DNA of 64,000 nucleotides from a virus: positions 1 to 64,000 of IMG/VR virus record IMGVR_UViG_3300045988_176431; one strand, 5' to 3'. A program made the position numbers and the translations under genes. Numbering within the stretch: the stretch's first letter is position 1; every line of letters starts with the position of its first letter. The notes beneath the pieces were generated by a model that saw only the letters and a program-made list of their open reading frames with translations, searched no databases and was not told the DNA's origin. Positions 37,139-62,224 of the stretch are shown piece after piece.

Positions 37139-37913
37139 TGTTGTAAATAGCACCCTTATCTAGTAATAGATATTGAAAAACCTATCTAATTGCGGGGAAC
37201 TCTCGTTAGGTCTTAACTACTAACTCAAGATTATTATTTGAGGGCAAAGGGTAATTCCGGAGATATAGTAAAAAGGTTAAGAATAGAGACAATCGACGCA
37301 GCGAAGTTTATTCTAAAAAATAAATAATATGAAATATAAAGAATCAATAATTTTTATAAACGGTGAAAAAAACAAATTATTTAGTTAATACAAAAGGTGA
37401 TGTTATTTCTTTATGTTATAGAGGTATACCTAATAATAGGCATATTATGAAATGAGTAAATTATCTGAATCAGATGTTAAAAATATTTGTAAATTGTTAA
37501 AAAGTAATGTAAATCCAACTGACATTGCAAATAAATTAAATATATCAAGATCAAGTGTTTATAGTATTAAATATAAAAAAACTTGGAGAAGAATATCTGA
37601 TAAGTATTTAAAAGGAAGTGATAAAAAATGATTAGAAATAATATTCGCCGTTTATATTTAAATTATATTATTTAAATATAGAATAAATAAGTTCAACGAC
37701 TATCGAAAGTATAGGTTAAGAGAAATACTTAACTGAATAAACGAGTAGAGTAGACCAGGAGTCTGGGTGCACGAAATTGGTGCTTTACGAAATGGTAGGC
37801 TCCTTATATTTGGTAACAGAATATAAGGATGAAGATATAGTCTAGTATCTCATGGCGACATGAGGAAGTTTATTATAAAACTGGGTTATTTAACGAATAA
37901 TCTGAATACAACG
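37139..37913 (+). ncRNA. group I self-splicing intron (with ORF-bearing insertion)
   Basis: P1: exon GGUGU (37134-37138) pairs with GCACC (37150-37154), with U.G at 37138. Terminal G at 37913. Shares the core (ctatctaattgcggggaactctcgtta, agagacaatcgacgcag, ttcaacgactatcgaaag, gagtagagtagaccag..ctgggtg, gatatagtct, GNRA-capped hairpin 37849-37864) with the two other copies. Splicing restores GEFGVGLTVTNALS. Confidence 0.8.
37452..37631 (+). CDS. intron-encoded 59-aa helix-turn-helix ORF (probable homing-endonuclease remnant)
   Basis: MSKLSESDVKNICKLLKSNVNPTDIANKLNISRSSVYSIKYKKTWRRISDKYLKGSDKK resembles the C-terminal HTH module (LTExDVxxIRxL...IAxxxGVSRSTISxIxxxKTWKHI) of phage HNH-type homing endonucleases. 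No nuclease domain is present. Confidence 0.5.
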   Translation: MSKLSESDVKNICKLLKSNVNPTDIANKLNISRSSVYSIKYKKTWRRISDKYLKGSDKK

Positions 37914-40047
37914 AGGATTGACAGTAACTAATGCCCTCAGTTCATATTTTAAGTTAGCAACATATAGAAATGATTATGTTCATATTATTGAGTTTGAAGA
38001 GGGTAAAAAGATTAATGATGTGAATCGTCCTTTGAAAAAAGGAGAAAAGAAACATGGAACCATTACTGAATTTACTGTAAATGAAAAATATATGGGAAAG
38101 AATTCATCTCTTCCAATTGATACAGTAGTAGATTGGATTGATATGATGACTTATCAAATATCTGCTAAGATTAAAATCACAGTAGATATTTACGATGGTA
38201 TTAATCGAGTAGAAACAAAGAAATTTAAGGCTAGACCATTTGGTAAAATCATTGAGAAATTCGTTCCTGATATTAAGAAAGTTTTCTATGATCCAATTAT
38301 TTTATCTGGTGATTCTAGTATTGTTGAAACAATTACAGATTCAACGATTGATAGTAAAACGGATAAAGTAAAAGTAAAAGATAAGAAAGTGAAAAAAGAT
38401 ATTCATTTGGATGTTGTATTTACACATGATGATACACCAGAAAATGATTATGTATCTTTCTGTAATTTTACAAAGACAGATGAGGGTGGTGTTCATTTAG
38501 ATTCTGTTGAAGAGGTTGTTTGTCGTTTCTTCCAACAGAAAACAAAATCTTTTATGACAGATAAAGAAAAAGAGAAATGGGACATTACTTGGGCAGATAT
38601 TAAGTATGGACTTAAGATGGTTGTAAATCTTTCAACAAGTGCACAAGTTCAGTTTATGGGTAATGCAAAGAATAAAATTCAGAACGCTGAATTAAAACCG
38701 ATTCTGAAAGAAATCATTAATACTGAATTAACGAAGTATTATGAAAAGAATGAAGGAAAGATTCAAAGTATATGTAAACTGATTAAGTTGAATGCAAGAG
38801 CACGTGTAGAATCTCAGAAAGTTCGTACAGCAACGAAGATTCAAAAATTAGACCGTTTTGATGAACTTTCAATTCCTAACTATGTAAGTTGTAATAACAG
38901 AGGAAAGAAGTATAAAGAATTATTCCTTGTAGAGGGTGAACGTTCTGCAACAGGTTCTGTTCGTAATGGTAGAAATCACGATACACAGGCAATCTTTGGA
39001 TTCCGAGGTGTGACAAAGAATCCATATAAATGTAGTGTAAGCGAAGTTCTAAGTAACAACGAGTGGAAGAACTTTATAAAGGTATTAAGAACTGGATTCG
39101 GAAAAGATTTTGATATTAATAAATTATATTATGACAAAATCATTTTGTTAACAGATGCCGATATTGATGGATTTTATATTTCATCTGGTATTTGTGCATT
39201 TATTGCACTTCTTATGCCAGAGATTATTACAGAGGGTCATTTATACAAAGTATATCCACCATTATATCAGATTAAGGATGGAAAGAAATTTAAGTTCTTA
39301 AATTCAAAATCTGATTTAACAGAAGAATTCATGAAGAAAGTTACAAAGAAATATAAGATTTATCTTCAAGGAGATAAGAATCCTTTATCAAAGGATGAAC
39401 TTTTTGAGTTCTTATATGACACGCTTGAGTATTATAATGATTTGAAAGACCTTGGTAAATATTTCTCAGTGGATAAATATTTCATTGAGAGAGTTGCTAA
39501 CTTCTTATTAATTAATGATATTCACAAAGCAACAAATGTAGATAAGTATTTAGAAAGTAATAAATTCGTTACTTCTTTTATGAACTATTTACAGAAAGAA
39601 TATCCAGAAGTAAATCTGGAAAAGAAAAATCGTTTACGTGGTGTAGTAGAAGGACAGATTGCATCAATTAAGATAAACGATAGAAATCTTAAGAAGTTCT
39701 CTGATTTTGAGAATATCTTTAAAGATTATGGTTATGAAATCGTGATCGAAAATAAGGATACAAAGGAAAAGAGAACAATTACAGTCGGTAGATTTATGGA
39801 GGAAACTTATCCATTACGTCCAGATATTTATAGCCGATTTAAAGGACTTGGTGAAACTGATGCTGAAGATATGGGTAAAACTACGCTAGATCCAGAGAAT
39901 CGAATCTTAGTTCAACTTACGATGGATGATGCAAAAGAAGCATTGAAAATCTTTAATAAGTTAAATGGTAATAAAAAGAAGGATTCTGAACTTCGAAAAG
40001 AAATGATGCGTCAGTATAAGATTGATAAAGAAAATCTGGATAACTAA
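37914..40047 (+). CDS. type II DNA topoisomerase ATPase/TOPRIM subunit, exon 2
   Basis: Continues (V)GLTVTNALS, then the transducer region, TOPRIM LFLVEGERSATGS and LLTDADIDGFYI, and C-terminal GLGETDAEDM. Exons sum to 2502 nt (833 aa). Confidence 0.85.
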
Positions 40048-40064
40048 AAGGAGGGTGAACAGAA

Positions 40065-42455
40065 ATGGGTAAGACAAAAAGAAATGTTTATTTAAATCCA
40101 CGACGTGGTGAAAAACAAAGTTTTGATGTTGCTCTTGCTTGTGAAGAGTGGTCAAAAGTATTTGGTGCAAATAAAAATATTTTTCGAACGACACCATCTA
40201 TGATTGATTCATTAAAACCAGTACAGTTAAGAATTTTGTATTGCCTTTATATGAGTGATAATCATGGAATGAAGAATCGTAAAGCAGCAGCTGTTACTGG
40301 TGAAGTAATGGGTAAATATCACCCACATGGAGATGCATCTATTTATGAAAGTATTGTAAAGATGTGTCAACCTTGGAAAAATCATGTTACTCTATTAGAT
40401 GGACATGGTAATTTTGGATCCATTGCAGGTGATTCTGCAGCCGCTATGCGTTATACTGAAGTGAAGATGAGTAAGTTTGCGATGGATTGTTTCTTTAGTG
40501 ATTTCGAAAGAACGAATATTCCAACACGTGAAACTTATACAGGAGATTCAACAGAACCAATTTATCTCCCATCTAAGTATCCAGTAATTTTATTTAATCC
40601 ATCATTTTCTGGAATTGGATTTGGACTTGCATCTAATATTCCACCTTTTAATCCAAAAGAAGTAATGGATGCAACAATTACGTTGATTCGAGATAAGAAA
40701 GCAAAAATTCGTTTGATTCCAGATTCACCAACTGGATGTGATATTATTGATACTGGCTATTTTGACCAGATTAATAAGACTGGTAAAGGAAAAATTATGA
40801 TGCAGGCTACTTATGATATTGATTATCAGGCAAATATTGTGACCTTTACATCAGTTCCTTTACAGGTTGGGACAAAAAATGTAATCGCATCTATTGTTAA
40901 GATGAAAAAAGAAGGAAAACTGGATGAGATTGTTGATGTTACAGATAGAACAGCAAATTCAAAAGTAGACTTCTCTTTAATCTTAAAGAAAGATGTGAAT
41001 CCAGATAAGTTTGTTGAAAAGTTATTTAAGAAGAAATGTGGACTTCGTGAAGGATTTTCTTGTGAAATTCAAGTAATTGATGATTTTGCACCAAGACTTC
41101 TTGGAGTAAAGAAGATTCTTCTTGAATGGATTGATTATCGAAGAGATTGTATTCATTCTATTTATAATAACTATTTGATGAAGTATCAAACAGATTATCA
41201 TATGAATCTTATCCTTATGAAGATTTTCAATAAAGATAATATTGAAAAGACAATTAAGATTTCAAGAAACTCAAAAACAAAAGCTGAGATGAAAGAGAAT
41301 CTTATAAAAGCATACGGAATCACAACACTTCAGGCTGAAGCAATCTCTAATATGAGAACAAGTGATTTCGTAAAGGATAAGTATAAAGAGTACGAAGAAA
41401 AAGATAAAGACCTTACTGAAAAAATTAAGAAAGTAGAAAAAGTTCTTGATTCTGATCATGAGGTAGATAAAATCATTATCAAACAATTAGAAGATGGAAT
41501 TCGTAAGTATGGCGGTCCTAGATTATCCCGTGTCATTAAAGAGGGAGAAGAAGAACTGATTCCAAATACGAATTATTTGATTGGAATTAGTAAGGATGGT
41601 TATATTAAGAAAATTTCAGCAGATGAATATGTATCAATTGGTTCTGTTGGAAAAACATCTTCAGTATCAGCAATCAAAATCAATAACCGAGATAATCTTC
41701 TAGTTTTTGATAGTCTTGGTAATATATCAAGGGTTATGGTTTCTATTATTCCTGATATGAAATATGATGAAAATGGAATTGAACTTGCTAGATTCCTTAC
41801 TACAAGTGGTGAAATTGTTACTATTATGAAAGAAAGTGAAGTCAAGGAATGTGTAAATTCTAACATCATGTTAGTAACACAAAATGGATTCGGTAAAAAA
41901 GTATCTTTATCTGAATTTAAGAACTTAACAGACCAAAAAGTTTCTATCACATTGAATGAGGGTGATAAGTTAGTTTCAGCAATTCCATCAATTGAGAGTG
42001 ATGACATTATTGTATACACAAACTTTGGTGATGGTATCAGACTTTCAACTGACGAATTTAAATTATATGGTAAAACTGCAAAAGGCTTGAATTTAATTTC
42101 TTTGAAACAGAATGAAAAAGTCATTGGAATGGATGTTATTGATAATACAAAAGAGAAAGATAAATTAGTATATATCACAACATCTGGTAGATTGAAAATG
42201 ACAAAAACGGAATATTTCCCTGTTATGAAGAGAAAAGATGAAGCATTAGCACTTTTATCATTAGAGAGTGGGGAACAACTTTTGAATGTATTCTCAGTTT
42301 CTGGAAAAGAAAGAATTGAATGTTATAGAAAGAAATCAAAACCAGTTACTGTTGAATTAAAGGATGTTCCAATTAAGACACGTATTTCAAAAGCTGAAAA
42401 GATTATAAAGACACCAAAAGGTGATGAAGTATTGGCTTGTAAGTTAATACGATAA
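40065..42455 (+). CDS. type II DNA topoisomerase DNA-cleavage subunit (GyrA/ParC / T4 gp52-like)
   Basis: YHPHGDASIYESIVKMCQPW and AAMRYTEVKM (catalytic Tyr motif). Confidence 0.85.
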   Translation: MGKTKRNVYLNPRRGEKQSFDVALACEEWSKVFGANKNIFRTTPSMIDSLKPVQLRILYCLYMSDNHGMKNRKAAAVTGEVMGKYHPHGDASIYESIVKMCQPWKNHVTLLDGHGNFGSIAGDSAAAMRYTEVKMSKFAMDCFFSDFERTNIPTRETYTGDSTEPIYLPSKYPVILFNPSFSGIGFGLASNIPPFNPKEVMDATITLIRDKKAKIRLIPDSPTGCDIIDTGYFDQINKTGKGKIMMQATYDIDYQANIVTFTSVPLQVGTKNVIASIVKMKKEGKLDEIVDVTDRTANSKVDFSLILKKDVNPDKFVEKLFKKKCGLREGFSCEIQVIDDFAPRLLGVKKILLEWIDYRRDCIHSIYNNYLMKYQTDYHMNLILMKIFNKDNIEKTIKISRNSKTKAEMKENLIKAYGITTLQAEAISNMRTSDFVKDKYKEYEEKDKDLTEKIKKVEKVLDSDHEVDKIIIKQLEDGIRKYGGPRLSRVIKEGEEELIPNTNYLIGISKDGYIKKISADEYVSIGSVGKTSSVSAIKINNRDNLLVFDSLGNISRVMVSIIPDMKYDENGIELARFLTTSGEIVTIMKESEVKECVNSNIMLVTQNGFGKKVSLSEFKNLTDQKVSITLNEGDKLVSAIPSIESDDIIVYTNFGDGIRLSTDEFKLYGKTAKGLNLISLKQNEKVIGMDVIDNTKEKDKLVYITTSGRLKMTKTEYFPVMKRKDEALALLSLESGEQLLNVFSVSGKERIECYRKKSKPVTVELKDVPIKTRISKAEKIIKTPKGDEVLACKLIR

Positions 42456-42458
42456 AAA

Positions 42459-42497
42459 ATAAAAAGAAAGTATCCAAATTGGATACTTTCTTTTTTT
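42459..42497. terminator. bidirectional terminator
   Basis: aaaaagaaagtatcc aaatt ggatactttcttttt. Confidence 0.75.
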
Positions 42498-42888
42498 ATC
42501 TTCTGTTCAAGATACTTAATTCATTAATGAATTCTGAAATCTTATCATTAAAGATCAATGTTAATTTTTCTGGTTCAAAATCAATAACAGAAGGACATTC
42601 ATTAATGTATAATATTAATGACCAATAATCAACTGTTCCATACATCTCTAATGATACCCGTTTCGGCTGAAAACGAAATCTATTTTGTTCTTTTTCAGAT
42701 AATGGAACCGTATAAGTTAAGTCATCAAAGTATTCTTTATATTTTGAAAATAATGGATTGAAAGGTATTTTAATCGTTGTATCATTTTGATCATCTGTGA
42801 TAAAAGCACAAGAATTTAATACACGATGACCTACTAATGAATTTAAGCCAATTTCAATACTTTCTTCTATGGTTGGTGGATTATACAT
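42496..42888 (-). CDS. hypothetical protein
   Basis: 130-aa ORF. Confidence 0.7.
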   Translation of the reverse strand: MYNPPTIEESIEIGLNSLVGHRVLNSCAFITDDQNDTTIKIPFNPLFSKYKEYFDDLTYTVPLSEKEQNRFRFQPKRVSLEMYGTVDYWSLILYINECPSVIDFEPEKLTLIFNDKISEFINELSILNRR

Positions 42889-42899
42889 AATTTATCACC

Positions 42900-43430
42900 T
42901 CATTTTTCTTTGTATTCAATTCCTAATGTTAAGTTATTTGAATCTTCATAATAATTGTCAGGATTCACTAATAAAGTTTCATCATCCTTTTTCAATACAT
43001 CAAGATTTAATCTTGGAGTAATTTTATTTTCATTTTCAGTTGTTGACTCATTTGTTGAAATGTCTCTTATATTAGTATTAAAGTATACTTGCCGTAAACT
43101 ATCATTTGCATAAAATACATAAACTTTTTCACCATTTTTTAATCCATCTGAATAATTTGAATTACCCTCAGCTGTTGCTAATATGTAATTCAGAGTTCTT
43201 AATTTTGTTTTAGATGTTGGCATACAAGAGGATGCATTTGCAAAAATATAAGAGGGAGAATCGACTGGTACAATTTGTATTTCTTTCTCTTTTCCTTGTG
43301 GGATGCTTGACATTAATTTTGGAATATATAAAGGAATTTTATCTCCAGATTTCACCTTGGTATGGTTTCCTATTACATATCCAATACTAGCATCACTTAA
43401 ATCATAATTTAATGAAAGAGATGTTATCAT
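42900..43430 (-). CDS. hypothetical protein (possible OB-fold baseplate/spike-like N-terminus, speculative)
   Basis: IGYVIGNHTKVKSGDKIPLYIPKLM loosely resembles the G.V....V.V.IP.L pattern of gp5/gpV-type spike N-domains. Confidence 0.6.
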   Translation of the reverse strand: MITSLSLNYDLSDASIGYVIGNHTKVKSGDKIPLYIPKLMSSIPQGKEKEIQIVPVDSPSYIFANASSCMPTSKTKLRTLNYILATAEGNSNYSDGLKNGEKVYVFYANDSLRQVYFNTNIRDISTNESTTENENKITPRLNLDVLKKDDETLLVNPDNYYEDSNNLTLGIEYKEK

Positions 43431-43539
43431 AATTCTTCACCCTTTCTTTTTTATTAAAGTAATGTCATAAAAAGAAAAAGATACTTTTCAATAGTGAGAA
43501 TCACAATACATTAAAATTTATATAGAAAGGGGTATACCT

Positions 43540-44733: not shown

Positions 44734-44795
44734 AATTTAGTCATTCTTTTTAGTTATGTAATATATTTTTGTATTAAACTAGAAAGGATGATAAT

Positions 44796-44894: not shown

Positions 44895-44907
44895 GAGGTG
44901 AAAAAAT

Positions 44908-45021: not shown

Positions 45022-45031
45022 GGCTAAATAT

Positions 45032-45577: not shown

Positions 45578-45592
45578 GAAAGGATGATAAAA

Positions 45593-49644: not shown

Positions 49645-49862
49645 TGTTAAAAGTTAGTAAAAAATTTGAACTTGATGAACTGAAAACTGTATTGAAAAAT
49701 TATTATAATGAATCAGAGATTTCAGAAATTGAACAAGTATTGGTTGAGAATGATGCATGGTCTGATGGACATATTGTAATCTTATCTGTTACAGCAGCAA
49801 ATGCTCAATATCATGATAAGTTTCGTGTAGTTGCACCTGAAACTTATGATGTATTCTTTTAA
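49641..49862 (+). CDS. hypothetical small protein
   Basis: 73-aa ORF with ATGA overlap to the upstream gene. Confidence 0.65.
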   Translation: MMLKVSKKFELDELKTVLKNYYNESEISEIEQVLVENDAWSDGHIVILSVTAANAQYHDKFRVVAPETYDVFF

Positions 49863-49867
49863 CAAGT

Positions 49868-49908
49868 AAAAAAGAGTAGTGAGAATTTAATCTCACTACT
49901 CTTTTTTT
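49868..49908. terminator. bidirectional terminator
   Basis: aaaaagagtagtgaga atttaa tctcactactcttttt. Confidence 0.75.
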
Positions 49909-49909
49909 A

Positions 49910-51361
49910 TTAATTAATAGGTTCACAATTATCACATACTTCTTCTTTTGGTTCTTCATCATCAGATTCATGCTTTTTTATGTCACCATGAAAAGATGAT
50001 GTTTGTACTTTCTTATTTTTTTGGATAAATTCACTAATGTCTCCAATCTCTTTATCTTTTTTTGAATTTTCGATTTCATCTAAGATCCTTGTGTATTCTT
50101 TTTTCAAATCATCAAGATCCATATCTGTTAATTCTTTTGTAATTGGGTATTTATTCAATTCCAAAGTTTTTAACATAATGGCTCTTTCTTCTTTTTTCTT
50201 TTTCTCGTCACGTTCGATTCTTCTAGGATGATTTGGATGTAAGATATTATCCTTTTCAAATCGTTCTTTATAATCTTCAAAGTAATCTAAGCATTTCTTA
50301 ATTGAATTAATGAATTTTTCTTTATTTGCATCATTATATTTTTCATAAATCAATTTTGAAATGGAAGATACAATTGAGCGTACATAAGAACGGTCTGCAT
50401 CATCATTAATATTGATATAAGCAATAAACCTCATCACAATAAATAAATATAAGTTATTGTATACATGATATTCTTCCGGCAAGTATTTTTCTTCAATATT
50501 AAAGAAGAAACGATATGTGCTAGAATTAAATCCGACCTTTTCAATTTTATTTTTAAATCGTTCAATAATATAAGCACTCTTGTTATTATTGAAGTATGTT
50601 TTAACAATACTTTCTACTTCTTTTGTTCCAAGTTTATCAAGACGTTCCGTGATAAAAGAACCATTAATGATTTTTTCAAGAGCATCAATCTTTTTTTGCA
50701 TCTTATTAATCTCAAAGGTATTCATTTTTTCTTTATCTTCTCTAAGACTAACGATTCTTTCATTTAAACGTTTAAGATTTTCTATCTGTTTTTGTTCATA
50801 TTCTGGAGAGCACATGTAATTAGAATATTCATTTAATACTTTTTCTGTTTCATCTTTTAATTCTTTTACATTATTTTCAGATTCCTCTAAAGAAACAAAA
50901 TCTTCTTTTAATTTTACAAGTACCTCACGAATTAAATTAAATTTTTCTGTAGGATAAACTTCCTCGAAAGGAACTACATCAATTTCTTTCTCATCATAAT
51001 TAGGTAAATTTTCTGGATCTAAATTTTCATCTATTGTATTTTTACTTTCATAATGCTGACTACAAATATCTTTAATCCAGTTTTCATCTGATTCAATATC
51101 TGGAACATTTTTCATATCCATTGGACCAAATGGAATTCTGATTTTTAATAATGCTTCTTCTGCAACGTCATCATCCATTTTTCGAAGTTCTTCTTGTGTA
51201 TAAGCATCAAATAAAAATTTACTACGACCAAAAGAAATATTATCAGCCTCATATGAATTTTTTACAATGTCACGGTAGATATTTAACTGCTCTTCTGCCT
51301 CTTTAACCATATCTACCATAACTTTATAATCCTGATGTGGATTAATCTTTTTCTCTGACAT
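49910..51361 (-). CDS. hypothetical helical/coiled-coil protein downstream of terminase
   Basis: Start 51361 after AAGGAGGA. 483 aa. No portal-like features recognised. Confidence 0.75.
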   Translation of the reverse strand: MSEKKINPHQDYKVMVDMVKEAEEQLNIYRDIVKNSYEADNISFGRSKFLFDAYTQEELRKMDDDVAEEALLKIRIPFGPMDMKNVPDIESDENWIKDICSQHYESKNTIDENLDPENLPNYDEKEIDVVPFEEVYPTEKFNLIREVLVKLKEDFVSLEESENNVKELKDETEKVLNEYSNYMCSPEYEQKQIENLKRLNERIVSLREDKEKMNTFEINKMQKKIDALEKIINGSFITERLDKLGTKEVESIVKTYFNNNKSAYIIERFKNKIEKVGFNSSTYRFFFNIEEKYLPEEYHVYNNLYLFIVMRFIAYININDDADRSYVRSIVSSISKLIYEKYNDANKEKFINSIKKCLDYFEDYKERFEKDNILHPNHPRRIERDEKKKKEERAIMLKTLELNKYPITKELTDMDLDDLKKEYTRILDEIENSKKDKEIGDISEFIQKNKKVQTSSFHGDIKKHESDDEEPKEEVCDNCEPIN

Positions 51362-51467: not shown

Positions 51468-52757
51468 TTAGAAATTATTTAATGTATTAAATAAATCTAA
51501 GTCTATACTTCCCATGTTTTCATCAGAACCATCAATCATATAATCTGCTGTGTTGTCATAAAGCTCACTATCAATGAGATTTTTCTTATATAACATCATA
51601 GATTCTTTTTGGGATTGAGCAATTGCTTTTCTCAGTTCTTCTGCATACATGTCTTTATTTGCTTCTTTCATCATTGTATCATGAATATCTCTTGCTGCTT
51701 CTGTTGAAATATTCTTTGTATAAGCGTCATCAGGTCTATGCAAACCATCATTATTTGCATTTTCAATAACTTCACCTTTATACAAACCAAAAGTCTCTAA
51801 GTTATCACCATGATAGTATACATATAATCCTATTAAGTATGACATAATAGAGTCATCGTGAAAACCTGCTCCTGCTTCGATTTTTCCACTTGGTTTTTTC
51901 ACAAGTCTTGATAAGTCATCCACAATATTTTGACAAATAAATTTATCTTTAAATTCACTAACATGTCTTGACAATATTGCGAACATTGTTTCACGTGAAT
52001 TTCCTTGTGTATAAACACCATAAAATTTCTTTTTCTGAGCATTATTCTTGAGCATACTTTGTACAGTTTCGTTCGAATGCATTTTTTCTTCTTGTAAATC
52101 TCTTGATTTATCAAAATACAGATTTCCTGCAATTGGACTATACATCAAATGATCAATGATACCATCACCTACGTTATTACGCTCAATACAAATAATAGCA
52201 TTTGGAATATATTGCTCAACTAATTCACGAATTACTAATTCATAAAGGGTTTCACCAATATAAGAACATTTAAATTCAGCAACAGGTTCTACCTTATAAG
52301 GATCAATAATTGTCATTGCATTATTATCTCCAAGAGTACCAGTAGAACAGTCAACACCTACAATATATGGAATTGATTTATCAAATTCTTCGTATATATC
52401 TAATTCATAATATTCTTTCAAATAAACTTTCTTAATCGGTCTCTTACATACATCAATGATGTAATCAATATCTTCACGAGCATATGGAGAATTTCCAGAA
52501 CCTTTCAATCGTTGTAATAAAATCTCACGACGAACAGTTAATGGATCACCAATCTCATTAGCGATATCTCTAAACCATTTTTCATCTTTTCCGATTTGAT
52601 GATAATCATATTCAATATATAAAATATGATTGGAATCATCTGCTTTAATCCAATCAATACATTTTTTATCAGACCAATCATACATTTTTTCAGTCCATGG
52701 TCTTGTTTTTGCTAACAATCTTTGTGCTGCCATTCCTTCAGCAGTATCTAAATCACC
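51468..52757 (-). CDS. terL: terminase large subunit (T4 gp17-like), exon 2 (nuclease half)
   Basis: VGVDCSTGTLGDNNAMTIID and GFHDDSIMSYLIGLY match T4 gp17 LDCSEGRGQDYHALHIID and GYHDDLVMSLVIFGW. The listed TTG 'start' at 52760 lies inside the intron. Confidence 0.8.
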   Translation of the reverse strand, partial: GDLDTAEGMAAQRLLAKTRPWTEKMYDWSDKKCIDWIKADDSNHILYIEYDYHQIGKDEKWFRDIANEIGDPLTVRREILLQRLKGSGNSPYAREDIDYIIDVCKRPIKKVYLKEYYELDIYEEFDKSIPYIVGVDCSTGTLGDNNAMTIIDPYKVEPVAEFKCSYIGETLYELVIRELVEQYIPNAIICIERNNVGDGIIDHLMYSPIAGNLYFDKSRDLQEEKMHSNETVQSMLKNNAQKKKFYGVYTQGNSRETMFAILSRHVSEFKDKFICQNIVDDLSRLVKKPSGKIEAGAGFHDDSIMSYLIGLYVYYHGDNLETFGLYKGEVIENANNDGLHRPDDAYTKNISTEAARDIHDTMMKEANKDMYAEELRKAIAQSQKESMMLYKKNLIDSELYDNTADYMIDGSDENMGSIDLDLFNTLNNF

Positions 52758-53140
52758 CAATTTATTTTATTCATATAAGTTCGTTATACTTATATCTGTT
52801 TTTATACAGCTATACTTCTCAGTATAGATTAGACTATATCTTCATCCTTATATTCTATTACCAAACATAAAGAGCCTACCATTTCGTAAAGCACCAATTT
52901 CGTGCACCCAGACTTCTGGTCTACTCTACTCAGTTATTCATATATAGATTTCTCTATATACTATCCTTTCGATAGTCGTTGAACATTCCTAATTGTTATT
53001 AGGCTTTGCTGCGGATTGTCTCTATCCTTAACGTTTTTACTATATTTTCAATATTAGTAGGTAAGACTTAACGAGAGTTCCCCGCAATTAGATAGGTTTT
53101 CCTTAAAAGTTTATGCAACTTTCTCACGCCCAGTGATTTT
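52758..53140 (-). ncRNA. group I self-splicing intron
   Basis: P1: exon ACGCCU (rc of 53141-53146) pairs with GGGCGU (rc of 53126-53131), with U.G at the junction and a 9-nt loop. Terminal G (rc of 52758). The core is nearly identical to the topoisomerase intron (e.g. gagtagagtagaccagaagtctgggtgcacgaaattggtgctttacgaaatggtaggct). Confidence 0.8.
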
Positions 53141-53977
53141 AGGCGTGCATGTAAATATACGACCATATAATGTATGATTTTTCTTTGATTTTTCTGCGGC
53201 TGTATTAAATGTAGAAACCGAGTTCTGAACAATAACATCAATATGAGATGTAAATTCAGGCTCGTCAAAATGTAATAATGGTGAAGTTAAACCACGGGCT
53301 AAGTTTAATGCCTGTGCATAACTTGTTGCTTTTGCTTTAACGGTAATACTATTTCCTGTCACAGGATGTTGCATACGGGTTGCATTTTTAACCATCTTTG
53401 TAATTTTACCGTCTTCATCCATATAAGATTCAAATCGTAAATATTCAGGTAATATCTCAATTTGTGCAGCGACACGACGTAAATTTTCTTTTGCATTCTC
53501 ACCATCTTTATTTACAAAAATAAAGTTAGAGTTTGAAGTACCAAAAGAATATGCCCATGTTTGTATACACAATGCTGAAACAGTTTTACCTTGCTGACGA
53601 CAAAGACATAACCATGAATCATACCCATGTAATAAACACCAAGCTTGTGCAATATTACCACGATTTGCACGATATGGAACACCATTTTTCATACCAGGCT
53701 CTGGAATTCTTGCTACCTCACGTAGATAATACCAAGGATTCTTTGTACATTCTACCATGATACGTGAAATTTGGTCTTTTGACAAACTTGTTCGTTCTGT
53801 CTTTTCATCTACTTGAAAAGCATCTACATTTGTCAAACTAATATCACATATTTCTAGCATGAAATAAAAGTTTTTTATTCCTACTTTTTTTAAATCAGTA
53901 GCAACTTTTAAAAAACTTTTATTGGCAGTTCCAGTATCATAATACTTTCCATTTATTTTCCTTATTCTATGTGCCAA
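53141..53977 (-). CDS. terL: terminase large subunit, exon 1 (ATPase half)
   Basis: TTG 53977 after AAGGAGG (ORF open to ATG 54049). CRQQGKT (Walker A; T4 SRQLGKT), LLHFDEPEF (Walker B), IFTCTP (motif III; T4 ITTTP). The listed tail KITGREKVA* is intron read-through. Confidence 0.8.
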
Positions 53978-54067
53978 AAAGATTTCCTCCTTTCTTACAT
54001 GAATTAATATACTGTCATGAATGAAAGAAAAAATATCCATTAAAAACATGATTATAAAGAACGTGAG

Positions 54068-54604: not shown

Positions 54605-55002
54605 TATTTGACAGGTACTTCCGAGCTAAGGTAGATAGTTCGAAGTTTTTATCAAATGAAGTAAAAGAGATGGTTCGAAATGATGATTTTTCGTTGATTC
54701 ATAATCCATATGAAATCAATAAACAGATTGAAACGATTCAACGTCTTTTGAATGGAACTCGTGATTTAACAAAACGTGAACGAGCAATGTTAGAAAGTGG
54801 AATAAAAGAACGAATTCTTTTAATGGAAGAGATTAATAAGAATCGTAAAGAAATGGAAATGGTTGAAGATATTAATAATACGAATTCAACTTCACCAATC
54901 GATATTGCTATCAGTTGTAAAATCAAAGAACAACATTATGATGGATATATTCGAAGAGAACGAGCAGAAGAAATGATTCATCATTTAGATATTAAACCTT
55001 AA
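54598..55002 (+). CDS. hypothetical protein
   Basis: 134-aa ORF overlapping the upstream stop. Confidence 0.7.
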   Translation: MLVFDRYFRAKVDSSKFLSNEVKEMVRNDDFSLIHNPYEINKQIETIQRLLNGTRDLTKRERAMLESGIKERILLMEEINKNRKEMEMVEDINNTNSTSPIDIAISCKIKEQHYDGYIRRERAEEMIHHLDIKP

Positions 55003-55042
55003 AGAAATAGGATACTTTTATGTATCCTATTTCTTATTTTAC
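55003..55042 (+). terminator. intrinsic terminator
   Basis: agaaataggatac ttttat gtatcctatttct followed by a T-rich tail. Confidence 0.7.
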
Positions 55043-55098
55043 GTTTTTATATTCAAAAACACAATTCAATATCAATGAATAAGAGAGGAATGTGTAAT

Positions 55099-56349
55099 AT
55101 GAAATTAACTAACAAATTAAAACCATTTAGAAGTATTACAAATGAATTATTGTCTCCTGTTACAGAATTATCAAATCAGTTATTGAAGGAGTCAATTAGT
55201 AAAAAAATAGAATATGTATTTGAAGAATACGGCACAGATTATAAAATGATACGAAATACAAGATCATCTATCATGTTTAGTACAGATATGGTTGATATTT
55301 ATTTAAAAATATTAGAGTGGATTTATAAATATGATAAAAGAGCGGATATGAACAGGGAATCTATAATTAAATCTTTTGATAATGGTGCAATTAAAAGATT
55401 TCGAATTGGTGCTAATGTTGTAGTAATACATTGTGAATTAACACATGTAGGTATGCATACTAAAAAATTTATAATTGAAATTCTCGGATTACAAGTAGGT
55501 CAGTTATATGAAATAATAACAAGTATCATCAACAAAGAAATTCAAAGAAAAGATGAAAAATATATTAATAATAAATATATAGTCACAGAATTTCGTGTTG
55601 ATATGGCAGCTACTAATGGATTGAATTTAAAAAATGATTTTTCAGATTTGATTTGTCCTGAAAAAGATGATGTTTTAAATAATTTAAATAGATTTTTTGA
55701 GAAAGAAGAACTTTATAAGAATCATAATCTGATATTTAATTATAATATTTTGCTTCACGGTAAACCTGGAACCGGAAAAACTCTTCTTGCAAGAATTATA
55801 TCAGATTACTATGATGCAATTTTATTCACCTTTAATTCAAAAAGTTATATTTATGATTTTTTCAATTTTACGATTTATGATTCTTTTTCACAAGATATTA
55901 GAAAACATAAGAAATTTATTTTCTTATTTGATGAAATTGATATTATTTTAAAAGATACATTGATTGACCCCGTTTCTAAAGCATCTGCAGAATCAGAGAA
56001 TTCAAAATTAGAGACAATTTTAAAAGTATTAGATGGTGAACTATCAGTTCATAATTCTATTACAATTCTTACAACAAATCATATGGAAGATTTGGATGAA
56101 AGAGTTATTCGTTCAGGACGAATTGACTGTGATATTGAAATGAAAGATTTGTCATATGAATATGCTCTTAAGATATTAGAAAAATTTGATGTAGACCCAG
56201 GTAAGTATTTTGAAATATTATCATTTTATATAAAAGAAGATAAATCTGATTCAACAAAGGAAAATATTACTGAAAAAGTAATAAAGAAATGGAAATATAA
56301 TCCATCCAAATTAGAATCAATTATTTTACATCATTTATTAAGAAACTAA
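55099..56349 (+). CDS. AAA+ ATPase
   Basis: LLHGKPGTGKTLLA (Walker A), FIFLFDEIDII (Walker B), ILTTNH (sensor 1), RSGRID (Arg finger region). Confidence 0.75.
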   Translation: MKLTNKLKPFRSITNELLSPVTELSNQLLKESISKKIEYVFEEYGTDYKMIRNTRSSIMFSTDMVDIYLKILEWIYKYDKRADMNRESIIKSFDNGAIKRFRIGANVVVIHCELTHVGMHTKKFIIEILGLQVGQLYEIITSIINKEIQRKDEKYINNKYIVTEFRVDMAATNGLNLKNDFSDLICPEKDDVLNNLNRFFEKEELYKNHNLIFNYNILLHGKPGTGKTLLARIISDYYDAILFTFNSKSYIYDFFNFTIYDSFSQDIRKHKKFIFLFDEIDIILKDTLIDPVSKASAESENSKLETILKVLDGELSVHNSITILTTNHMEDLDERVIRSGRIDCDIEMKDLSYEYALKILEKFDVDPGKYFEILSFYIKEDKSDSTKENITEKVIKKWKYNPSKLESIILHHLLRN

Positions 56350-56393
56350 AAAAAAGAAGAGAATACAGAATATTCTGTATTCTCTTCTTTTTT
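56350..56393. terminator. bidirectional terminator
   Basis: aaaagaagagaatacagaa/ttctgtattctcttctttt palindrome (central ta). Confidence 0.75.
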
Positions 56394-56638
56394 CACTTAC
56401 TTTCCTCGATTGATTTAAGTTTCTTTTTTATTATTTGTATATCTTCATGTACTTCATCTAATTGATTTTGTATGTTATCTAACTTATTATTGATATGCTC
56501 TTGTTTTTCAATGATTTCAAGACATATATTATTTGTTCGGTTATATGTCATAATTATTAATCCCATATTAATAATTAGATAGACAAATAATGCTATAAGC
56601 ATGACAGTACTAAATACAACATATGTTTTCTTTTTCAT
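56393..56638 (-). CDS. small membrane protein with coiled-coil tail
   Basis: TM helix VVFSTVMLIALFVYLIINMGLII. Confidence 0.7.
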   Translation of the reverse strand: MKKKTYVVFSTVMLIALFVYLIINMGLIIMTYNRTNNICLEIIEKQEHINNKLDNIQNQLDEVHEDIQIIKKKLKSIEESK

Positions 56639-56669
56639 GTTATCACCACCTTTCTTTATTTACATTAAT

Positions 56670-56681
56670 ATGATATATAAA
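56670..56681 (-). promoter_or_regulatory. promoter-like motif TTTATATATCAT (minus strand)
   Basis: 32 nt upstream of the 56638 start. Identical to the 10215 copy. Confidence 0.35.
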
Positions 56682-56746
56682 TATGTCAGTTAATTTATTA
56701 GAAAAAACATATACTTAATAAATTATAATAGTTAGGATGTGATAGA

Positions 56747-57469
56747 ATGAATATATCTAAATTAGTAACCCGTATTAAAATGCAAATCGGTATTTATGGA
56801 GTTGCTTTACCAATTGATAATTTAGATGAAATCATTACAGATATTATACGTGATATCACGTTACCAGTATTTTCAACATATTGTCCATATGAAGAAAAAC
56901 TTTATATAGACCTTGATAAATTAGAAAGACTTGAACGTACATCAAGTTATTCTTCTTATCTCTTACCAGAGTTTAATCAAAGAAAACTTCTTTATATAAA
57001 AGACATTAGTTATGATGATAGATGTATGTCTGGAATCGGATACTGGGGTGGTGATATTCCATATTTAAATGGCGTATTAATGCAACAATCGATGATTAGT
57101 AATGCTGCTAATAACTTGTTACGAACTGTAATTCCAAAACTTAATTTTCAGTTCGAACCACCAAGAAGAGTTACGATTTATAATATGATTGCTACAAATA
57201 GTTTAATCTTTTCTTTACTATTTGAGCATGACAAAAATTTACAAACAATAACACCAACACAAGAAGAAAGTTTCTTCCGATTAGCTATATTAGATGTTAA
57301 AAATAATCTTTATGGATTAGTAAAACATTACAATCAGATTCAAACAGCATACGGTACTATTGATTTGAAAATTGATGATTGGCAAAATGCAGAAGCAGAA
57401 CGTAGAGATTTATTAAATGATTGGGATGATAAATATCAATTAGATTTAGGACAAATTACATGGAGTTAA
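56747..57469 (+). CDS. hypothetical protein (possible virion protein)
   Basis: 240-aa ORF with TAGGATGTGA RBS. Confidence 0.75.
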   Translation: MNISKLVTRIKMQIGIYGVALPIDNLDEIITDIIRDITLPVFSTYCPYEEKLYIDLDKLERLERTSSYSSYLLPEFNQRKLLYIKDISYDDRCMSGIGYWGGDIPYLNGVLMQQSMISNAANNLLRTVIPKLNFQFEPPRRVTIYNMIATNSLIFSLLFEHDKNLQTITPTQEESFFRLAILDVKNNLYGLVKHYNQIQTAYGTIDLKIDDWQNAEAERRDLLNDWDDKYQLDLGQITWS

Positions 57470-57471
57470 TA

Positions 57472-57507
57472 AAAAAAGAAGAATTATTATAGTAATTCTT
57501 CTTTTTG
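57472..57507. terminator. bidirectional terminator
   Basis: aaaaagaagaatta ... taattcttcttttt. Confidence 0.65.
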
Positions 57508-57527
57508 TGTAGAGAGTGAAGATGATA

Positions 57528-57758
57528 TTACTCATCTTCACTCTCTACTTCCTCTTCCGGAATTATTTCATCTGGAATTTCTGGTCCATCATCATCAATT
57601 ATTTCATCTGGGATATTAATTTTTTCATTAATATCAGAATCAATTTCTTTTTCTTTTTCCATCTTTTCAACGCTTTTCTGAGCGTTTACACCAATAATGA
57701 TTCCGGCAATTCCGGAAATAATACCTGAAATAATAGCAGCTTTATTTGTGTCTTTCAT
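57528..57758 (-). CDS. small Gly-zipper membrane protein with acidic tail
   Basis: AAIISGIISGIAGIIIGV followed by a D/E/I/P-rich tail. Confidence 0.7.
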   Translation of the reverse strand: MKDTNKAAIISGIISGIAGIIIGVNAQKSVEKMEKEKEIDSDINEKINIPDEIIDDDGPEIPDEIIPEEEVESEDE

Positions 57759-57824
57759 ATTGACACTCCTCTCTGGTTTTATAAGAGTTATTCCTTCTCT
57801 ATATTATTTATTAGATTCATGAAT

Positions 57825-57836
57825 ATAGTATATAAA
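57825..57836 (-). promoter_or_regulatory. promoter-like motif variant TTTATATACTAT (minus strand)
   Basis: 67 nt upstream of the 57758 start. Confidence 0.25.
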
Positions 57837-57924
57837 TGATATATACAGAAATACGATTTTCAATTCTAAATAACTGAGAAAACAAAGATATAACGTAATT
57901 GAAATATGAAAGTAGGTGAAAAAT

Positions 57925-60900
57925 ATGTACTTTGTAAACGATTTACCTTATTTAAAAGCAGTTCGTAAAAAAGCTTTTTTGCCAAAGGGTCAACCGATAT
58001 CACAAGGTAATTTAATTTTTCTATTTTCACCATCGATTGAAAAATCATTTGAAATGATCAATGATGAGACAACTGTCCCAAATGGTGGAAAATATTTTTG
58101 GTATTTTTATAACTTATTATATCGAGGAACCATTTATGGAAAACGATATCTTTATCGTGATATGAAAGAAAGACTTGCGATATATAAGCGAGTACCAAAA
58201 GAAACAAATATACGTTCTTATGCAACTAAACCAATTATTAGTGGTACAGAAAAAAGAAACACATATTATGAATTAGCTAGATATTATGAAATATTTAATC
58301 AATATTCAAGTAAATTAAATGCAGTAAAATTGGTTGATTGTTTTTGGAAATACTTTACTCCTATCTTTAAAGATCAATATGGATATTTAGATCATAAATA
58401 TGTCTTAATTAATGCAAATAACTTTAAAGATTTTAAAGGGGATAAATTAAGAGACCAGTTAAATAATCCTTTGTTTTTGATTTATTATACTTTGTGGAAA
58501 CAATTTGATTTGATTGCTGAGTTGGATATTGATTTCATTATTTATGCAAATGGAAAAATCATGAGATTTAACCCATCTAAATGTGATGAAAAATCTTATC
58601 GAATATATCTTAGAGAATTAAAAAAGATATATTCAGTTGCTACAGTTCCAATTGAGACAATTGCTGAAGAAGAAATTAATACTGAGGAAGAAGAAAAAGA
58701 AGAGGAACCGAGAGTAAAGTTTAAATCAGAAAAAATGTCTGTTACTAAAAAAACAGCATTACCAATTGTAGATAAAATTACGGCGGTAGCAACAAAATTG
58801 TCAGCATCTTCAAAAAAGAAGATTGAACAAAAGGTAATTCATAAAGTTTCTTCTGTATCATCTACTATGAATGTCGATAAGATAAAAGATGATGAAAAGA
58901 AAAAAGAGGTTGTAAAAGAAATTCAAAAGAAAGTAGAAGATGAAATTAATACAGATGAAGATGTGATTAAAGAAGTATATAATACAATGCAAAAAGAATT
59001 TGTACCAAAATCAACTTCACGTTCTACTGCTAGAGATAATCTTTTACGAGAAGAACAGAAGAAGTTGAATATCAAAGGTTCAACTTTAAAATCTATTGAA
59101 AAACAAAAAGATGTTGATATTGAAACAACAGATATTACTCAGAATGTAAAAAGCACAAATGAGAATACAAAAATAATCAAGTTTAATAACTTTAATAAAA
59201 CTTATAACGATAAGCTTTTAAATAAAGATATTATGGATTGCTTTACTCAATTGAATAATAAGTCAATTAAGATGTTTATCCGAAATGTCGATATAGAAGA
59301 TACTTCAGATGAATTGAATTATAAAGAAACTTGGACGGTTAAGTTAGAGGATGAAAACAGAAATCGTCATACAATAAAAGTAGATATTCCTAAATTCTTA
59401 GAGTATAAATTTTTATGGCTCGGTGGTAATAGAAAGAATATAAAGAATCAGATGTTCTTTTTACCATTTGTAAAGATTGATAAAGACCGTGTTCTTATTG
59501 TATCTAATTATAATAAGTTTACAATTCAACGAGTGGATACAAAGTCTTTAAGGGGTCTTTCTCGAATTGAAACATTTATTCAGAAATCAGATTCTTTTAA
59601 AGATTACTTTATTTCAGGTAATACTTTCTTTGAAAATAAAGATTTTATTACAGCAATTGAATATGATGAATTTGGAAAGAGTTTTCGTAAATTCCATAAA
59701 TCTCAAACAACGATTTACTTCAGTCAGGTAGAAGCAAAGCATGAGATGGAAAAGAAAATGATAAAGATTAAATCAAATGAAATGTTCATTGGTTTTGAAA
59801 AGGGTGAACCACTTATCCTTAATATTAAAACACAGAAAGATAAAAAGAATCGTGGTATTGTCGATATCATTTTAGATACGATGGATGAAACTCAATTAAA
59901 AGAGTATAAATCTATTAAAACGCCAAAACGGTTGATGCATACTCAGATTACAACAATGAAACAGGATTGTCCACTTATTATCATGCTTTGTATTTGGGAA
60001 GGACTTAGTACGGTATTAAAGAAAGCAAAGATTAAATATCGTTTAGGTGCAAGCATTCGTGATATGAAAGTAAACGAAGATTATATTCGTTTCAAGAATT
60101 GCTATTTGATTTATGAAGATGATATTGAATCTGAATTATTAATCAATGGATTGAAGTTATTAGATACTGCTTCACATGATATTGGTGAATATGAGACACA
60201 AGAAGTTTATCTTCCATATGTTGAAAGGAAATATGGTAGAATAAACGCTATTAATACATTAAATAATGCTTATGAATTTATGCTAGGTTCAATTGAAATA
60301 TCTTTATTAAAAGATATGAATCTTCCAACGGATATTGTATCTCTTTGTATTCATGCAAATGAAGTACTCTGTGATAATCAATACGACAATGAGTTAGTTC
60401 AAACACATTCTCGTATTCGTTGTAATGAAATTATTCCTGCAATTCTTTATGATAAGATTGCAAAAGCTTATACACCATTTAAGAACTCAAATGGTAAAAA
60501 GAAATTATCAATTCCACAAGATTGTGTCATTAAAGAAATTTTAAAGCAAAAAACAGTAGAAGATTATGATTCATTAAATCCTTTATTGGAACTTGAAACG
60601 AATCATGGTGTATCAACAAAAGGATTTCGTGGAATTAATTTGGAGCAGTCTTATAGTGTTCCAAAACGTTGTTATGATGATAGTATGATTGGTGTTATAG
60701 GACCATCTTCATCTCCAGATGGAAATGTAGGTGTAAATCGTTCTCTTACGATGGAACCAAATATTAAAACAGCAAGGGGATATGTAGAAGTAAAGAAAGA
60801 TAATTTGAATGAGGTAAAAGATGTTAATCTTTTCTCTCCAGCAGAACTTTTAATTCCTCTTGGTGTAACACGAGATGATCCAGTTCGAACTGGACATAGT

Positions 60901-61872
60901 GTAAAACAGTCTCGTCATACAATTCCTGTTGTAAAATCTTCACCTGTCCTTATTTCAAATGGTTCAGATGAAATGTGTAAATATTACTTATCTTCTGATT
61001 TTGTTGTAAATGCAAAAATGGATGGTAAAGTAGTTGAAAATGACCCTTCAACAAAAATTATGGTTGTTGAATATAAGGATGGAACTCATCAAGCAATTGA
61101 TTTAGGAAAGAAACTTGCAAAAAATGGTGGTGGAGGTTTTGAATTATCAAATCAATTAATCACAAACTTAACCGTTGGTTCCAGATTTAAAAAGAATGAT
61201 ACACTTGCATGGCATAAAAATTTCTTTAAAAACGATAAATACCAAGGAACACGTTTATGTGTTGGTACATTAGCGAAAGTAGCAATAACTTCTTCTTATA
61301 ATACTTATGAAGATGGTACTTTTGTGACACATGGATTTTCAGAAAAAGCAACAACTGAAATGTGTTTTAAAAAACCTGTCGTAATTGGAAGACACTCAAA
61401 TGTATCTCAGATGGTATCAGTTGGTCAATCAATTAATACTGGTGACCCATTGATTCAGTTTGATGACTCTTTTGAAGAAGCCAATATTAACGTTCTTCTT
61501 AATTCACTTGGTGATAATGAAGAATTAAAGGATGCCGTTATTTCGAATAATAGAAATATTGTAAAATCGAAATATTCTGGTGTAATAGAAGAGATTAAAA
61601 TGTATTCTACAGCAGATTTAGAAGATTTGTCTCCGAGTTTACAAAAAATCTTTAAAAGATATTATGATAAGATAAATAATAGAAAGAAAGTATTGAAAAA
61701 ATACAATGAAAAAGATGGAATTGTGTATTGTGGAATGATGATTAATGAACCTACTGGTAAAGTAGAACCAAATCGTTATGGAACAATACGTGGTGAGAAA
61801 GTAAATGATGGTGTGTTAATTGAGTTTTATATTAAACATCAGGAACCACTAGAAGTTGGTTCCAAAATCGCT
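57925..61872 (+). CDS. multisubunit-RNA-polymerase beta-like subunit, exon 1
   Basis: ATG after AGGTGA. GFRGINLEQSY..RCYDDSMIGVIGPSSSPDGNVGVNRSL aligns with beta RDVH.SHYGR.CPIETPEG.NIGLI.SL. DDPVRTGHSVKQSRHTIPV aligns with DDANRALMGSNMQRQAVP. Ends EVGSKIA, aligning with GDKMA. About 700 aa at the N-terminus have no recognisable similarity. Confidence 0.75.
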
Positions 61873-62224
61873 TAAAGTTAGGTGATTTAAAACTTACCTA
61901 ATTGCGGGAAACTCTCGTTAAGTTCTAGTTACTAACTTATGATAGTAATATACATAAGGGCAAGGGGTAACTCCTAAGGTATAGTAAAAAAACTAGAAAT
62001 AGAGACAATCGACGCAGGGAAGTATCTCTTATGAGATATGGCTTCAACGACTATCGAAAGGATAATATATAGAGAAATCTATATATGAATAACTGAGTAG
62101 AGTAGACCAGTTAATCTGGGTGTACGTTATTGGTACTTTACGAAACGGTAAGTGTTATAAATATGGTAATAGTATTTATAATAAAGATATAGTCTATTCT
62201 ATATAGTGATATATAGTATTAAAG
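61873..62224 (+). ncRNA. group I self-splicing intron (ORF-less)
   Basis: P1: exon UCGCU (61868-61872) pairs with GGUGA (61881-61885), with U.G at 61872. Begins with in-frame TAA and ends in G at 62224. Shares the core with the two other copies. GNRA-capped hairpin ctatata gtga tatatag at 62199-62216. Confidence 0.75.

Follow-up and report, generated by a model that had tools for sequence, protein, structure and literature searches.

Why do three essential genes of one bacteriophage each carry an interruption built from nearly the same sequence? This question is raised by a 64,000-nucleotide stretch of viral DNA (positions 1 to 64,000 of IMG/VR record IMGVR_UViG_3300045988_176431; this whole stretch is hereafter called the window), in which the genes for a GyrB-like topoisomerase, a terminase (terL) and an RNA polymerase beta subunit are split by putative group I introns, which we call Int1, Int2 and Int3. 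A preliminary description of this DNA had proposed that a single intron family colonized the three genes, and that splicing could act as a common gate on replication, packaging and transcription. In this report, we provide evidence that the three elements are very probably paralogous self-splicing group I introns of one mobile family that has multiplied in jumbo phages related to AR9, PBS1 and MarsHill. The dispensability of the terL intron and the indiscriminate distribution of the family speak against such a gate, and the best-supported reading is that of a selfish, mobile, recombining intron family, with splicing making the insertions tolerable in essential genes.

The window comes from an AT-rich (29% G+C) jumbo phage. 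A megablast search with its topoisomerase region against 50,697 phage records gave zero nucleotide matches, and the phage is therefore undescribed. Its TerL, GyrB and RNA polymerase beta proteins have approximately 30-40% amino acid identity to those of Bacillus phage BpSp, PBS1/AR9, the MarsHill/S6-like Staphylococcus jumbo phages, Listeria phage LPJP1 and phiR1-37. A scan of IMG/VR for the P3/P4 pattern of the introns identified a close relative, the 249-kb contig IMGVR_UViG_3300045988_176405 (hereafter, the relative), which shares synteny and 93-99% identity with the window. Counts of introns in the relative cover only its retrieved parts, about 82 kb, and are lower bounds.

Three interrupted genes

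The conserved blocks that define the family occur exactly three times in the window, at approximately 37.2-37.8 kb (plus strand), 53.1-52.8 kb (minus strand) and 61.9-62.2 kb (plus strand). For example, GAGTAGAGTAGACC has three matches, compared with 0.14 expected, and the 23-nucleotide P3/P4 block has three, compared with 0 expected. An nhmmer search of the 64 kb with a profile of the three copies (--max, without filters) found no fourth copy, and an Rfam scan of the whole window by E-value found no further intron type. The window thus contains exactly three homologous group I introns, and the scan for more copies of the core that the preliminary description had proposed adds none to them. 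The introns, their predicted guides and the flanking exons are as follows (ORF, open reading frame).

36771-37138, plus strand: topoisomerase exon 1 (HATPase_c; phrog_543)
37139-37913, plus strand: Int1, group I intron of 775 nucleotides in the GyrB-like topoisomerase II large-subunit gene
37149-37154, plus strand: Int1 internal guide AGCACC, predicted to pair with 5' exon GGUGU(+U) (duplexfold, -7.4 kcal/mol)
37318-37672, plus strand: insert of 355 nucleotides in the Int1 P6 loop, a decayed HNH homing-endonuclease gene
37452-37631, plus strand: ORF of 59 amino acids in the insert, the remaining C-terminal DNA-binding (helix-turn-helix, HTH) part of the endonuclease
37914-40047, plus strand: topoisomerase exon 2 (DNA_gyraseB, Toprim and GyrB_C domains)
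51468-52757, minus strand: terL exon 2, from GDLDT to the nuclease domain (phrog_2; BpSp TerL alignment)
52758-53140, minus strand: Int2, group I intron of 383 nucleotides in terL, ORF-less and without a P5 extension (RF00028)
53125-53131, minus strand: Int2 internal guide GGGCGUG, predicted to form P1 with CACGCCU
53141-54049, minus strand: terL exon 1, ATPase domain through the presumed motif III, ending in IFTCTP (phrog_32359, phrog_2; BpSp TerL alignment)
57916-61872, plus strand: RNA polymerase beta exon 1 (phrog_3148, phrog_14872)
61873-62224, plus strand: Int3, group I intron of 352 nucleotides, ORF-less, in the virion-type RNA polymerase beta gene (RF00028)
61880-61888, plus strand: Int3 internal guide AGGUGAUUU, read from the sequence, with a predicted P1 duplex
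62225-63157, plus strand: RNA polymerase beta exon 2 (end of beta and phrog_3233 module)

Comparison with the Rfam group I intron model (RF00028, gathering threshold 50 bits) gave 86.2 bits for Int2 and, in a targeted scan, 60.2 bits for Int3. For Int1, the match was restricted to the 3' half (29.4 bits) because of the 355-nucleotide insert; the insert-free topoisomerase intron at the same site in the relative scored 69.7 bits. Scans of the whole window (at the gathering threshold and at E<=1) return the terL copy alone. These misses are an effect of filters or of the insertion and not of absence, as the targeted scans detect both other copies.

A three-way alignment of the copies contains long identical stretches. 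The similarity is well illustrated by the gagtagag...ggtaggct block, in which the topoisomerase and terL copies have 1 mismatch over 59 nucleotides, in agreement with the near identity seen earlier. The P9 loops are GNRA tetraloops (GCGA, GAGA and GUGA), also as previously described. The consensus blocks given in the preliminary description are all present three times, with corrections in detail: 'aaagRata' has T in the topoisomerase copy, the terL copy reads atagagacaatc--cgcag with a 2-nucleotide deletion, and 'NNN' is 4 nucleotides in the RNA polymerase copy. A further statement, that only P1 and the peripheral loops differ, is overstated. The regions of P1/P2, P6 and P9 are wholly different among the three copies, and whole helices (P3, P5a, P6, P7.1a, P8 and P9) differ by compensatory changes. 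Also, a P5 extension of approximately 36 nucleotides is common to the topoisomerase and RNA polymerase copies and absent from the terL copy, and the 355-nucleotide insert is unique to the topoisomerase copy.

The 3' peripheral P9.2 hairpins of Int1 (37880-37900) and Int2 (52775-52795, minus strand) have different stems and the same loop, UAACGAA. This loop is also found in two of the relative's copies (L027b and L034e), and it may be a tertiary-contact element.

Splice sites were set so that P1 includes a U.G pair, the intron ends in G and the reading frame is kept. All three 5' exons finish in a U opposite a guide G, and all three introns finish in G. The outer coordinates of the preliminary description, 37139 and 62224, correspond to two of these splice sites, the 5' one of Int1 and the 3' one of Int3, respectively. 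Its expectation of a separate P1 guide for each copy, fitted to the 5' exon in question, is borne out. A P1 duplex is predicted for every copy, and P10 is convincing in Int2 only. For Int1, the U.G pair of P1 is at ...GGUGU|. For Int2, the P1 duplex CACGCCU/GGGCGUG has a predicted energy of -12.4 kcal/mol, and a P10 of 7-8 base pairs has -8.3 kcal/mol. Unspliced frames end after about 8, 9 and 0 codons, in agreement with the earlier description, and the downstream gene fragments have no start codon at the junction.

Each spliced junction aligns in a single gapless segment to intronless homologues (BpSp, Machias and others). The Int1 junction, GEFGV|GLTVTNALS, is the glycine motif of the GHKL ATP lid and aligns without gaps to the GyrB proteins of BpSp and Machias; after in silico splicing, the HATPase_c domain reaches across it. 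Int2 interrupts IFTCTP|GDLDT, about 38 residues past the Walker B-like LLHFDE, at a site that we take to be ATPase motif III by analogy with T4 gp17. At Int3, the junction GSKIA|NFTALKNVIGEV aligns gaplessly to BpSp gp245 (GDKITFYTALKT), and the RNA_pol_Rpb2_6 domain, which spans the junction, is found on the spliced product only. Exon 1 of this gene matches, in tblastn searches, the 'viral RNA polymerase beta subunit' of MarsHill-like, PBS1/AR9 and phiR1-37 phages. The Int3 junction is the diverged counterpart of the GDKxxxxxxNKG region of beta. A phmmer search of the spliced C-terminal region against PDB gave no match, so the equivalence with the beta motif is drawn from the PHROG and Pfam matches and the BpSp alignment. 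The insertions thus do lie in conserved functional motifs of three essential genes, although the earlier phrase 'most conserved catalytic motif' is too strong: the terL site is motif III of the ATPase, not Walker A or B.

Additional features of these host genes merit mention. In RNA polymerase exon 2 (62225-63157), the final stretch of the beta-type family, approximately 63 residues (phrog_14872 positions 1329-1391), is joined with a phrog_3233 module (amino acids 72-293). In other phages, this module is a separate protein family of approximately 225 amino acids, and BpSp gp245 stops shortly past the junction region. The arrangement may have arisen by gene fusion, or the virion RNA polymerase may be split differently in this phage. 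In the GyrB-like gene, residues 530-546 (Toprim region) are a second insertion hotspot, which is empty in the window. The interruption there is annotated as an intron in Machias (L001:4422-4564) and as two genes with a 270-nucleotide gap in BpSp (gp077/gp078, L003:2934-3205). We considered whether the Machias gyrB intron shares the Int1 site and rejected this, as local tblastn places the Machias intron near residue 530.

Conserved structure and predicted splicing

We aligned 33 members of the family (3 in the window and 21 in the close relative, with 9 more on other viral contigs) and evaluated a structure consisting of P3, P4, P5, P5a-d, P6, P7 (pseudoknot), P7.1a, P7.2/a/b, P8 and P9, in which P7.2 has 5 base pairs. 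With this structure, 88.9% of cells are paired, compared with 35-44% when the partners are slid by 1-3 columns, and 63 of the 90 pairs changed on both sides. The covariation score was 0.326 (0.06-0.085 in the slid controls), and none of 500 shuffles reached the observed values. Covariation is heavy in P3, P5a, P5c, P7.2b and P8. RNAalifold independently recovers P3, P4, P5, P5a-c, P6 and P8, with 40 of 52 pairs compensated. In the Rfam alignment, an insertion of approximately 90 nucleotides separates the 5' strand of P7 from the 3' strand of P3, and the helices of this insertion (13-18) change on both sides. The shared P3-P9 core with compensatory changes that the preliminary description anticipated is thus strongly supported, together with P7.1/P7.2 and with P7 invariant. 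Together with the block counts and the RF00028 matches, this covariation confirms that the three copies belong to one group I intron family.

A hairpin of the form CUAUC-GAAA-G(N)AUAG, located at 37718-37732, 52943-52957 (minus strand) and 62051-62065 (alignment columns 233-247), overlaps the P7 5' strand, GACUA. Family variants of this hairpin exhibit covariation from U-A to G-C (UAU..AUA versus UAG..CUA). Since it would compete with P7, it could represent another conformer of the RNA or else a P7.1 that has been mis-assigned.

In the proposed splicing reaction, each guide would pair with the last bases of its own 5' exon, placing a U.G pair at the 5' splice site, which would be the point of attack for an external guanosine bound by the invariant P7. 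The terminal G of the intron would then set the 3' site, and ligation of the exons would restore the topoisomerase, terminase and RNA polymerase beta reading frames. An unspliced mRNA would yield a truncated protein.

The intron family in a close relative

Int2 is missing from the relative precisely at its splice junction (site A): 6909|6910 of L049 corresponds to 53141|52757 of the window, and the relative's ORF is continuous there. Because the terL exons of the two phages are 98.6% identical (26 mismatches in 1802 nucleotides), Int2 is considered dispensable. Of these mismatches, five lie within 8 nucleotides of site A, and all five are synonymous (binomial P about 2e-5). At this site, the window reads CACGCCT|GGTGATTTA and the relative CACACCA|GGAGATCTC, so the intron-less allele lacks both the splice-site U and the P1 complementarity. 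Four more exon mismatches are clustered 41-47 nucleotides downstream of the empty site (L049:6950-6957 versus window 52710-52716), which is consistent with the edge of a co-conversion tract.

The relative's terL contains another copy of the family about 900 nucleotides downstream (site B), at GAG|FHDD in the nuclease domain, and this intron encodes an intact 282-amino-acid HNH_3 endonuclease (L049 7844-8692). The window is empty at site B (GCAGGAGCAGGT|TTTCAC), and three synonymous differences lie within 12 nucleotides of the site. Sites A and B are thus reciprocal, and exhibit the presence/absence polymorphism with altered flanking exons that is found for mobile introns. Comparison with a related phage shows a polymorphic terL intron; the contrary outcome considered in the preliminary description, in which the sequences would be ordinary intergenic repeats, was not seen. 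In several more distant relatives, terL is interrupted, and some alignments break at residue 303. In the more distant relative L050, it appears uninterrupted (match length equals protein length).

In total, the retrieved parts of the relative hold at least 23 copies of the family, distributed as follows.

Beta'-like RNA polymerase gene, adjoining NADFDGD: 3 copies
phrog_3015 RNA polymerase gene: 2 copies
phrog_3295 RNA polymerase gene: 1 copy
DNA polymerase: 1 copy
UvsX-like recombinase: 1 copy, with an endonuclease gene in P6 that is split into two ORFs
phrog_2943 'polymerase': 5 copies
Gene without an assigned function: 6 copies
L046, host gene not identified: 1 copy
Topoisomerase and RNA polymerase beta (at the window sites) and terL site B: 3 copies

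Some copies form arrays within single genes, with six at L034:6857-9244 (near 108 kb of the relative contig) and five at L015:385-2403 (near 84 kb). Within the arrays, nhmmer matches are 27-126 nucleotides apart, so the exons between them must be very small. Neither PHROG nor phage tblastn searches gave a match for the six-intron gene, whose N-terminal ORF is at 5973-6884 and C-terminal ORF at 9300-9914. Because its N-terminal exon has no phage homologue, the small exons could not be reconstructed.

Module-by-module comparison indicates exchange between copies. The RNA polymerase beta introns of the two phages, which are at the same site (L035 in the relative), are identical in P3/P3', P5a, P8 and P9, and differ in P5ext (38/45), P6 (18/27), P7.1a (22/29) and P7.2 (41/50). 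In the differing modules, each is 96-100% identical to copies at other sites; for example, P7.1a of the window intron matches r_L034f, and P6 and P7.1a of the relative's intron match r_L035c/r_topo. Between the two topoisomerase introns, too, P6 and P7.1a are different. The window terL intron is closest overall (93.5%) to L027b, which resides in a different gene of the relative, and the two differ in P1/P2/P3. Since swapped modules match other copies, the near-identical blocks result, at least partly, from continuing gene conversion among copies, with guide modules kept per locus. We had considered the near-identical blocks as proof of recent spread, and this argument is weakened by the module exchange.

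Endonuclease genes are seen intact, split and decayed among the copies of the two phages. Three-frame translation of the Int1 insert reveals a short start, a frame-shifted NUMOD4-like piece and the 59-amino-acid ORF. This ORF matches Pfam HTH_7 at 3e-4 (weak, below the cut-off) and PHROG HNH/homing-endonuclease families, and it aligns to residues 167-218 of the intact 282-amino-acid endonuclease in the relative's terL intron (BLASTP 5e-7). No HNH domain is left in the insert; it is therefore a decayed homing-endonuclease gene. It occupies the P6 loop, the same loop that holds the endonuclease gene in the relative's UvsX intron. The relative's topoisomerase intron at the same site (L043) has no such insert and has a different P6 stem. 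Int2 and Int3 are ORF-less, so the window introns encode no functional homing endonuclease. A tblastn search of the window with the relative's HNH endonucleases detected no intact cognate HNH gene, the Int1 remnant being the sole match, and Pfam analysis of ten neighboring ORFs revealed no free-standing endonuclease beside the introns.

These data suggest a scheme in which copies would spread as DNA in the course of co-infection or recombination, with an HNH (I-HmuI-like) homing endonuclease driving at least some of the events. This enzyme is intact in some of the relative's copies and decayed in Int1, and ORF-less copies would persist as passengers. Ribozyme cores would keep trading modules by gene conversion, while P1/P2, P3 and P9 would stay tied to their locus. 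We infer both this route of spread and the neutrality of the introns to the phage. Endonuclease target choice usually leads to insertion at conserved motifs. We also entertain, as a tentative suggestion that we think more likely wrong than right, that a single group I intron family has expanded in this lineage in an unusually large burst, in which most copies lack an endonuclease and the core evolves in concert while the P1-P3 'address' modules stay locus-specific.

Elsewhere in the window, the ORFs at 34032-35006 and 35025-35999 are neighbors on the same strand, encode 324 amino acids each and may be tandem paralogues. Strong palindromic hairpins at 49860-49915 and 56351-56394 score on both strands against the unrelated Rfam models mir-71, mir-1252 and CsrC. 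They are probably bidirectional terminators between convergent genes, and not mir-71, mir-1252 or CsrC RNAs.

Alternative explanations and known introns

The assignment to a mobile family of self-splicing introns has to be weighed against several points that count against it. P7 (GACUA/UAGUC) is invariant and so uninformative for covariation, and the hairpin CUAUCGAAAGNAUAG, which has some covariation, would compete with the P7 5' strand. The P7.1/P7.2 domain suggests an IA2-like anatomy, a subgroup assigned from anatomy alone. We infer splicing and catalytic activity from DNA alone. Int2 and Int3 have no endonuclease of their own, and, as noted above, tblastn detects no intact cognate HNH gene in the window. 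Finally, the clustered synonymous changes around the terL sites could reflect co-conversion, endonuclease resistance or P1 adaptation, causes that are not separable here.

The elements might not be introns at all, but ordinary dispersed repeats that separate gene fragments translated on their own. True splits are frequent among the RNA polymerase genes of jumbo phages (PMC7598289), and the whole-window Rfam gathering scan returned one of the three copies. However, the downstream fragments would have to be translated from junctions that lack a start codon, the junctions lie inside single domains or motifs (the GHKL ATP lid, TerL motif III and Rpb2_6), the group I fold covaries, and the terL element is precisely absent in the relative, leaving one continuous ORF. 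We regard this explanation as almost certainly wrong. The common gate of the preliminary description is a different matter, since it accepts the introns and supposes that they are kept because the output of topoisomerase, terminase and RNA polymerase is set jointly by splicing efficiency, which would depend on GTP, Mg2+ or folding. All three unspliced frames do stop within 0-10 codons, so that expression strictly needs splicing, and the window phage and the relative each keep one terL intron, albeit at different sites. Yet the site A intron is missing from nearly identical exons in the relative, L050 appears to manage with an uninterrupted terL, and the family inhabits at least 23 sites in unrelated genes of many functions. 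We found no regulatory feature, and specifically no conserved sensor element beyond the ribozyme core and variable peripheral helices. Moreover, the three host genes are on different strands, which makes shared timing unlikely, and, to judge from AR9-like phages, they fall into different temporal classes. Joint control is thus very improbable.

More credible, though still unlikely, is a competitive function, in which intron-endonuclease units cut the intron-less alleles of co-infecting relatives and the introns are partly kept by between-phage selection. An arms race between endonuclease and resistance would leave reciprocal terL introns with synonymous clusters at both target sites, as observed; the relative's terL intron has an intact HNH endonuclease; and there is a precedent in PhiPA3 gp210, within an RNA polymerase beta intron (PMC11620839). 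However, the sole intron endonuclease gene of the window is decayed, and Int2 and Int3 are ORF-less, so the window copies cannot themselves be weapons. Copies in the lineage that do bear an endonuclease may have a role like that of PhiPA3 gp210, and this would account for the synonymous clusters at target sites.

A selfish intron family of the kind favored here has several counterparts. Phage T4 carries three related group IA2 introns at conserved sites of enzyme genes (td, nrdB and nrdD, also called sunY). Endonuclease genes are kept in some of these introns and lost in others, and the introns are polymorphic among relatives, with co-conversion of flanking exons. The family described here differs in its host genes, in having HNH rather than GIY-YIG endonucleases and in its far higher copy number within the lineage, and it can be aligned with the T4 introns only in the universal core.

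AR9/PBS1, MarsHill, Madawaska and Machias belong to the same phage clade as the window phage. In AR9 and MarsHill-like phages, introns reside in genes for RNA polymerase subunits, DNA polymerase, terminase and gyrase B, and their number and position vary among close relatives (bioRxiv 10.1101/2020.12.14.422802). Unlike that group, the window phage has no nucleotide similarity to any deposited phage, and its insertion sites differ (Machias gyrB and BpSp gp077/078 are interrupted near residue 530-546, whereas Int1 is in the ATP lid). Also, the paralogous single-family nature of the introns and the exchange of modules are documented in the window phage and the relative.

Other phages provide further parallels. 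The SPO1/SP82 DNA-polymerase intron and the Bastillevirinae introns, which reside in Firmicutes phages, contain I-HmuI-type HNH endonucleases with NUMOD and HTH modules in an intron loop (PMC11878797), but their host genes and sites are different, and the endonuclease of the window phage is decayed to a 59-amino-acid HTH ORF. In the jumbo phage PhiPA3, a group I intron that interrupts a multisubunit RNA polymerase beta gene at a conserved motif encodes gp210, an active HNH endonuclease with a demonstrated competitive role (PMC11620839). That intron follows two conserved aspartates and is thus at another site, and Int3, in contrast, is ORF-less. Jug and crAss-like gut phages have on average 18.5 group I introns per genome and terL genes in 2-3 pieces, with splicing confirmed by metatranscriptomes (PMC12880540). 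They form an unrelated clade with Bacteroides hosts, and their introns, of about 206 nucleotides, are not described as one recombining family.

Polymerase, gyrase and terminase genes riddled with introns are therefore already known for the AR9/MarsHill-like clade and other huge phages, and the general picture is unchanged. What the present case adds are the exact splice coordinates, the reciprocal empty-site pair and the exchange of modules between copies. For annotation, three essential genes would be miscalled as truncated or split unless the introns are removed, and the splice coordinates given above correct this. Together, the window phage and IMGVR_UViG_3300045988_176405 constitute a clean natural experiment on the spread and homogenization of group I introns within a virus. 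If no homing endonuclease took the ORF-less copies to their new sites, and they arrived instead by, for example, reverse splicing or address-swapping recombination, these phages would provide a natural system for studying ectopic transposition of group I introns in a virus.

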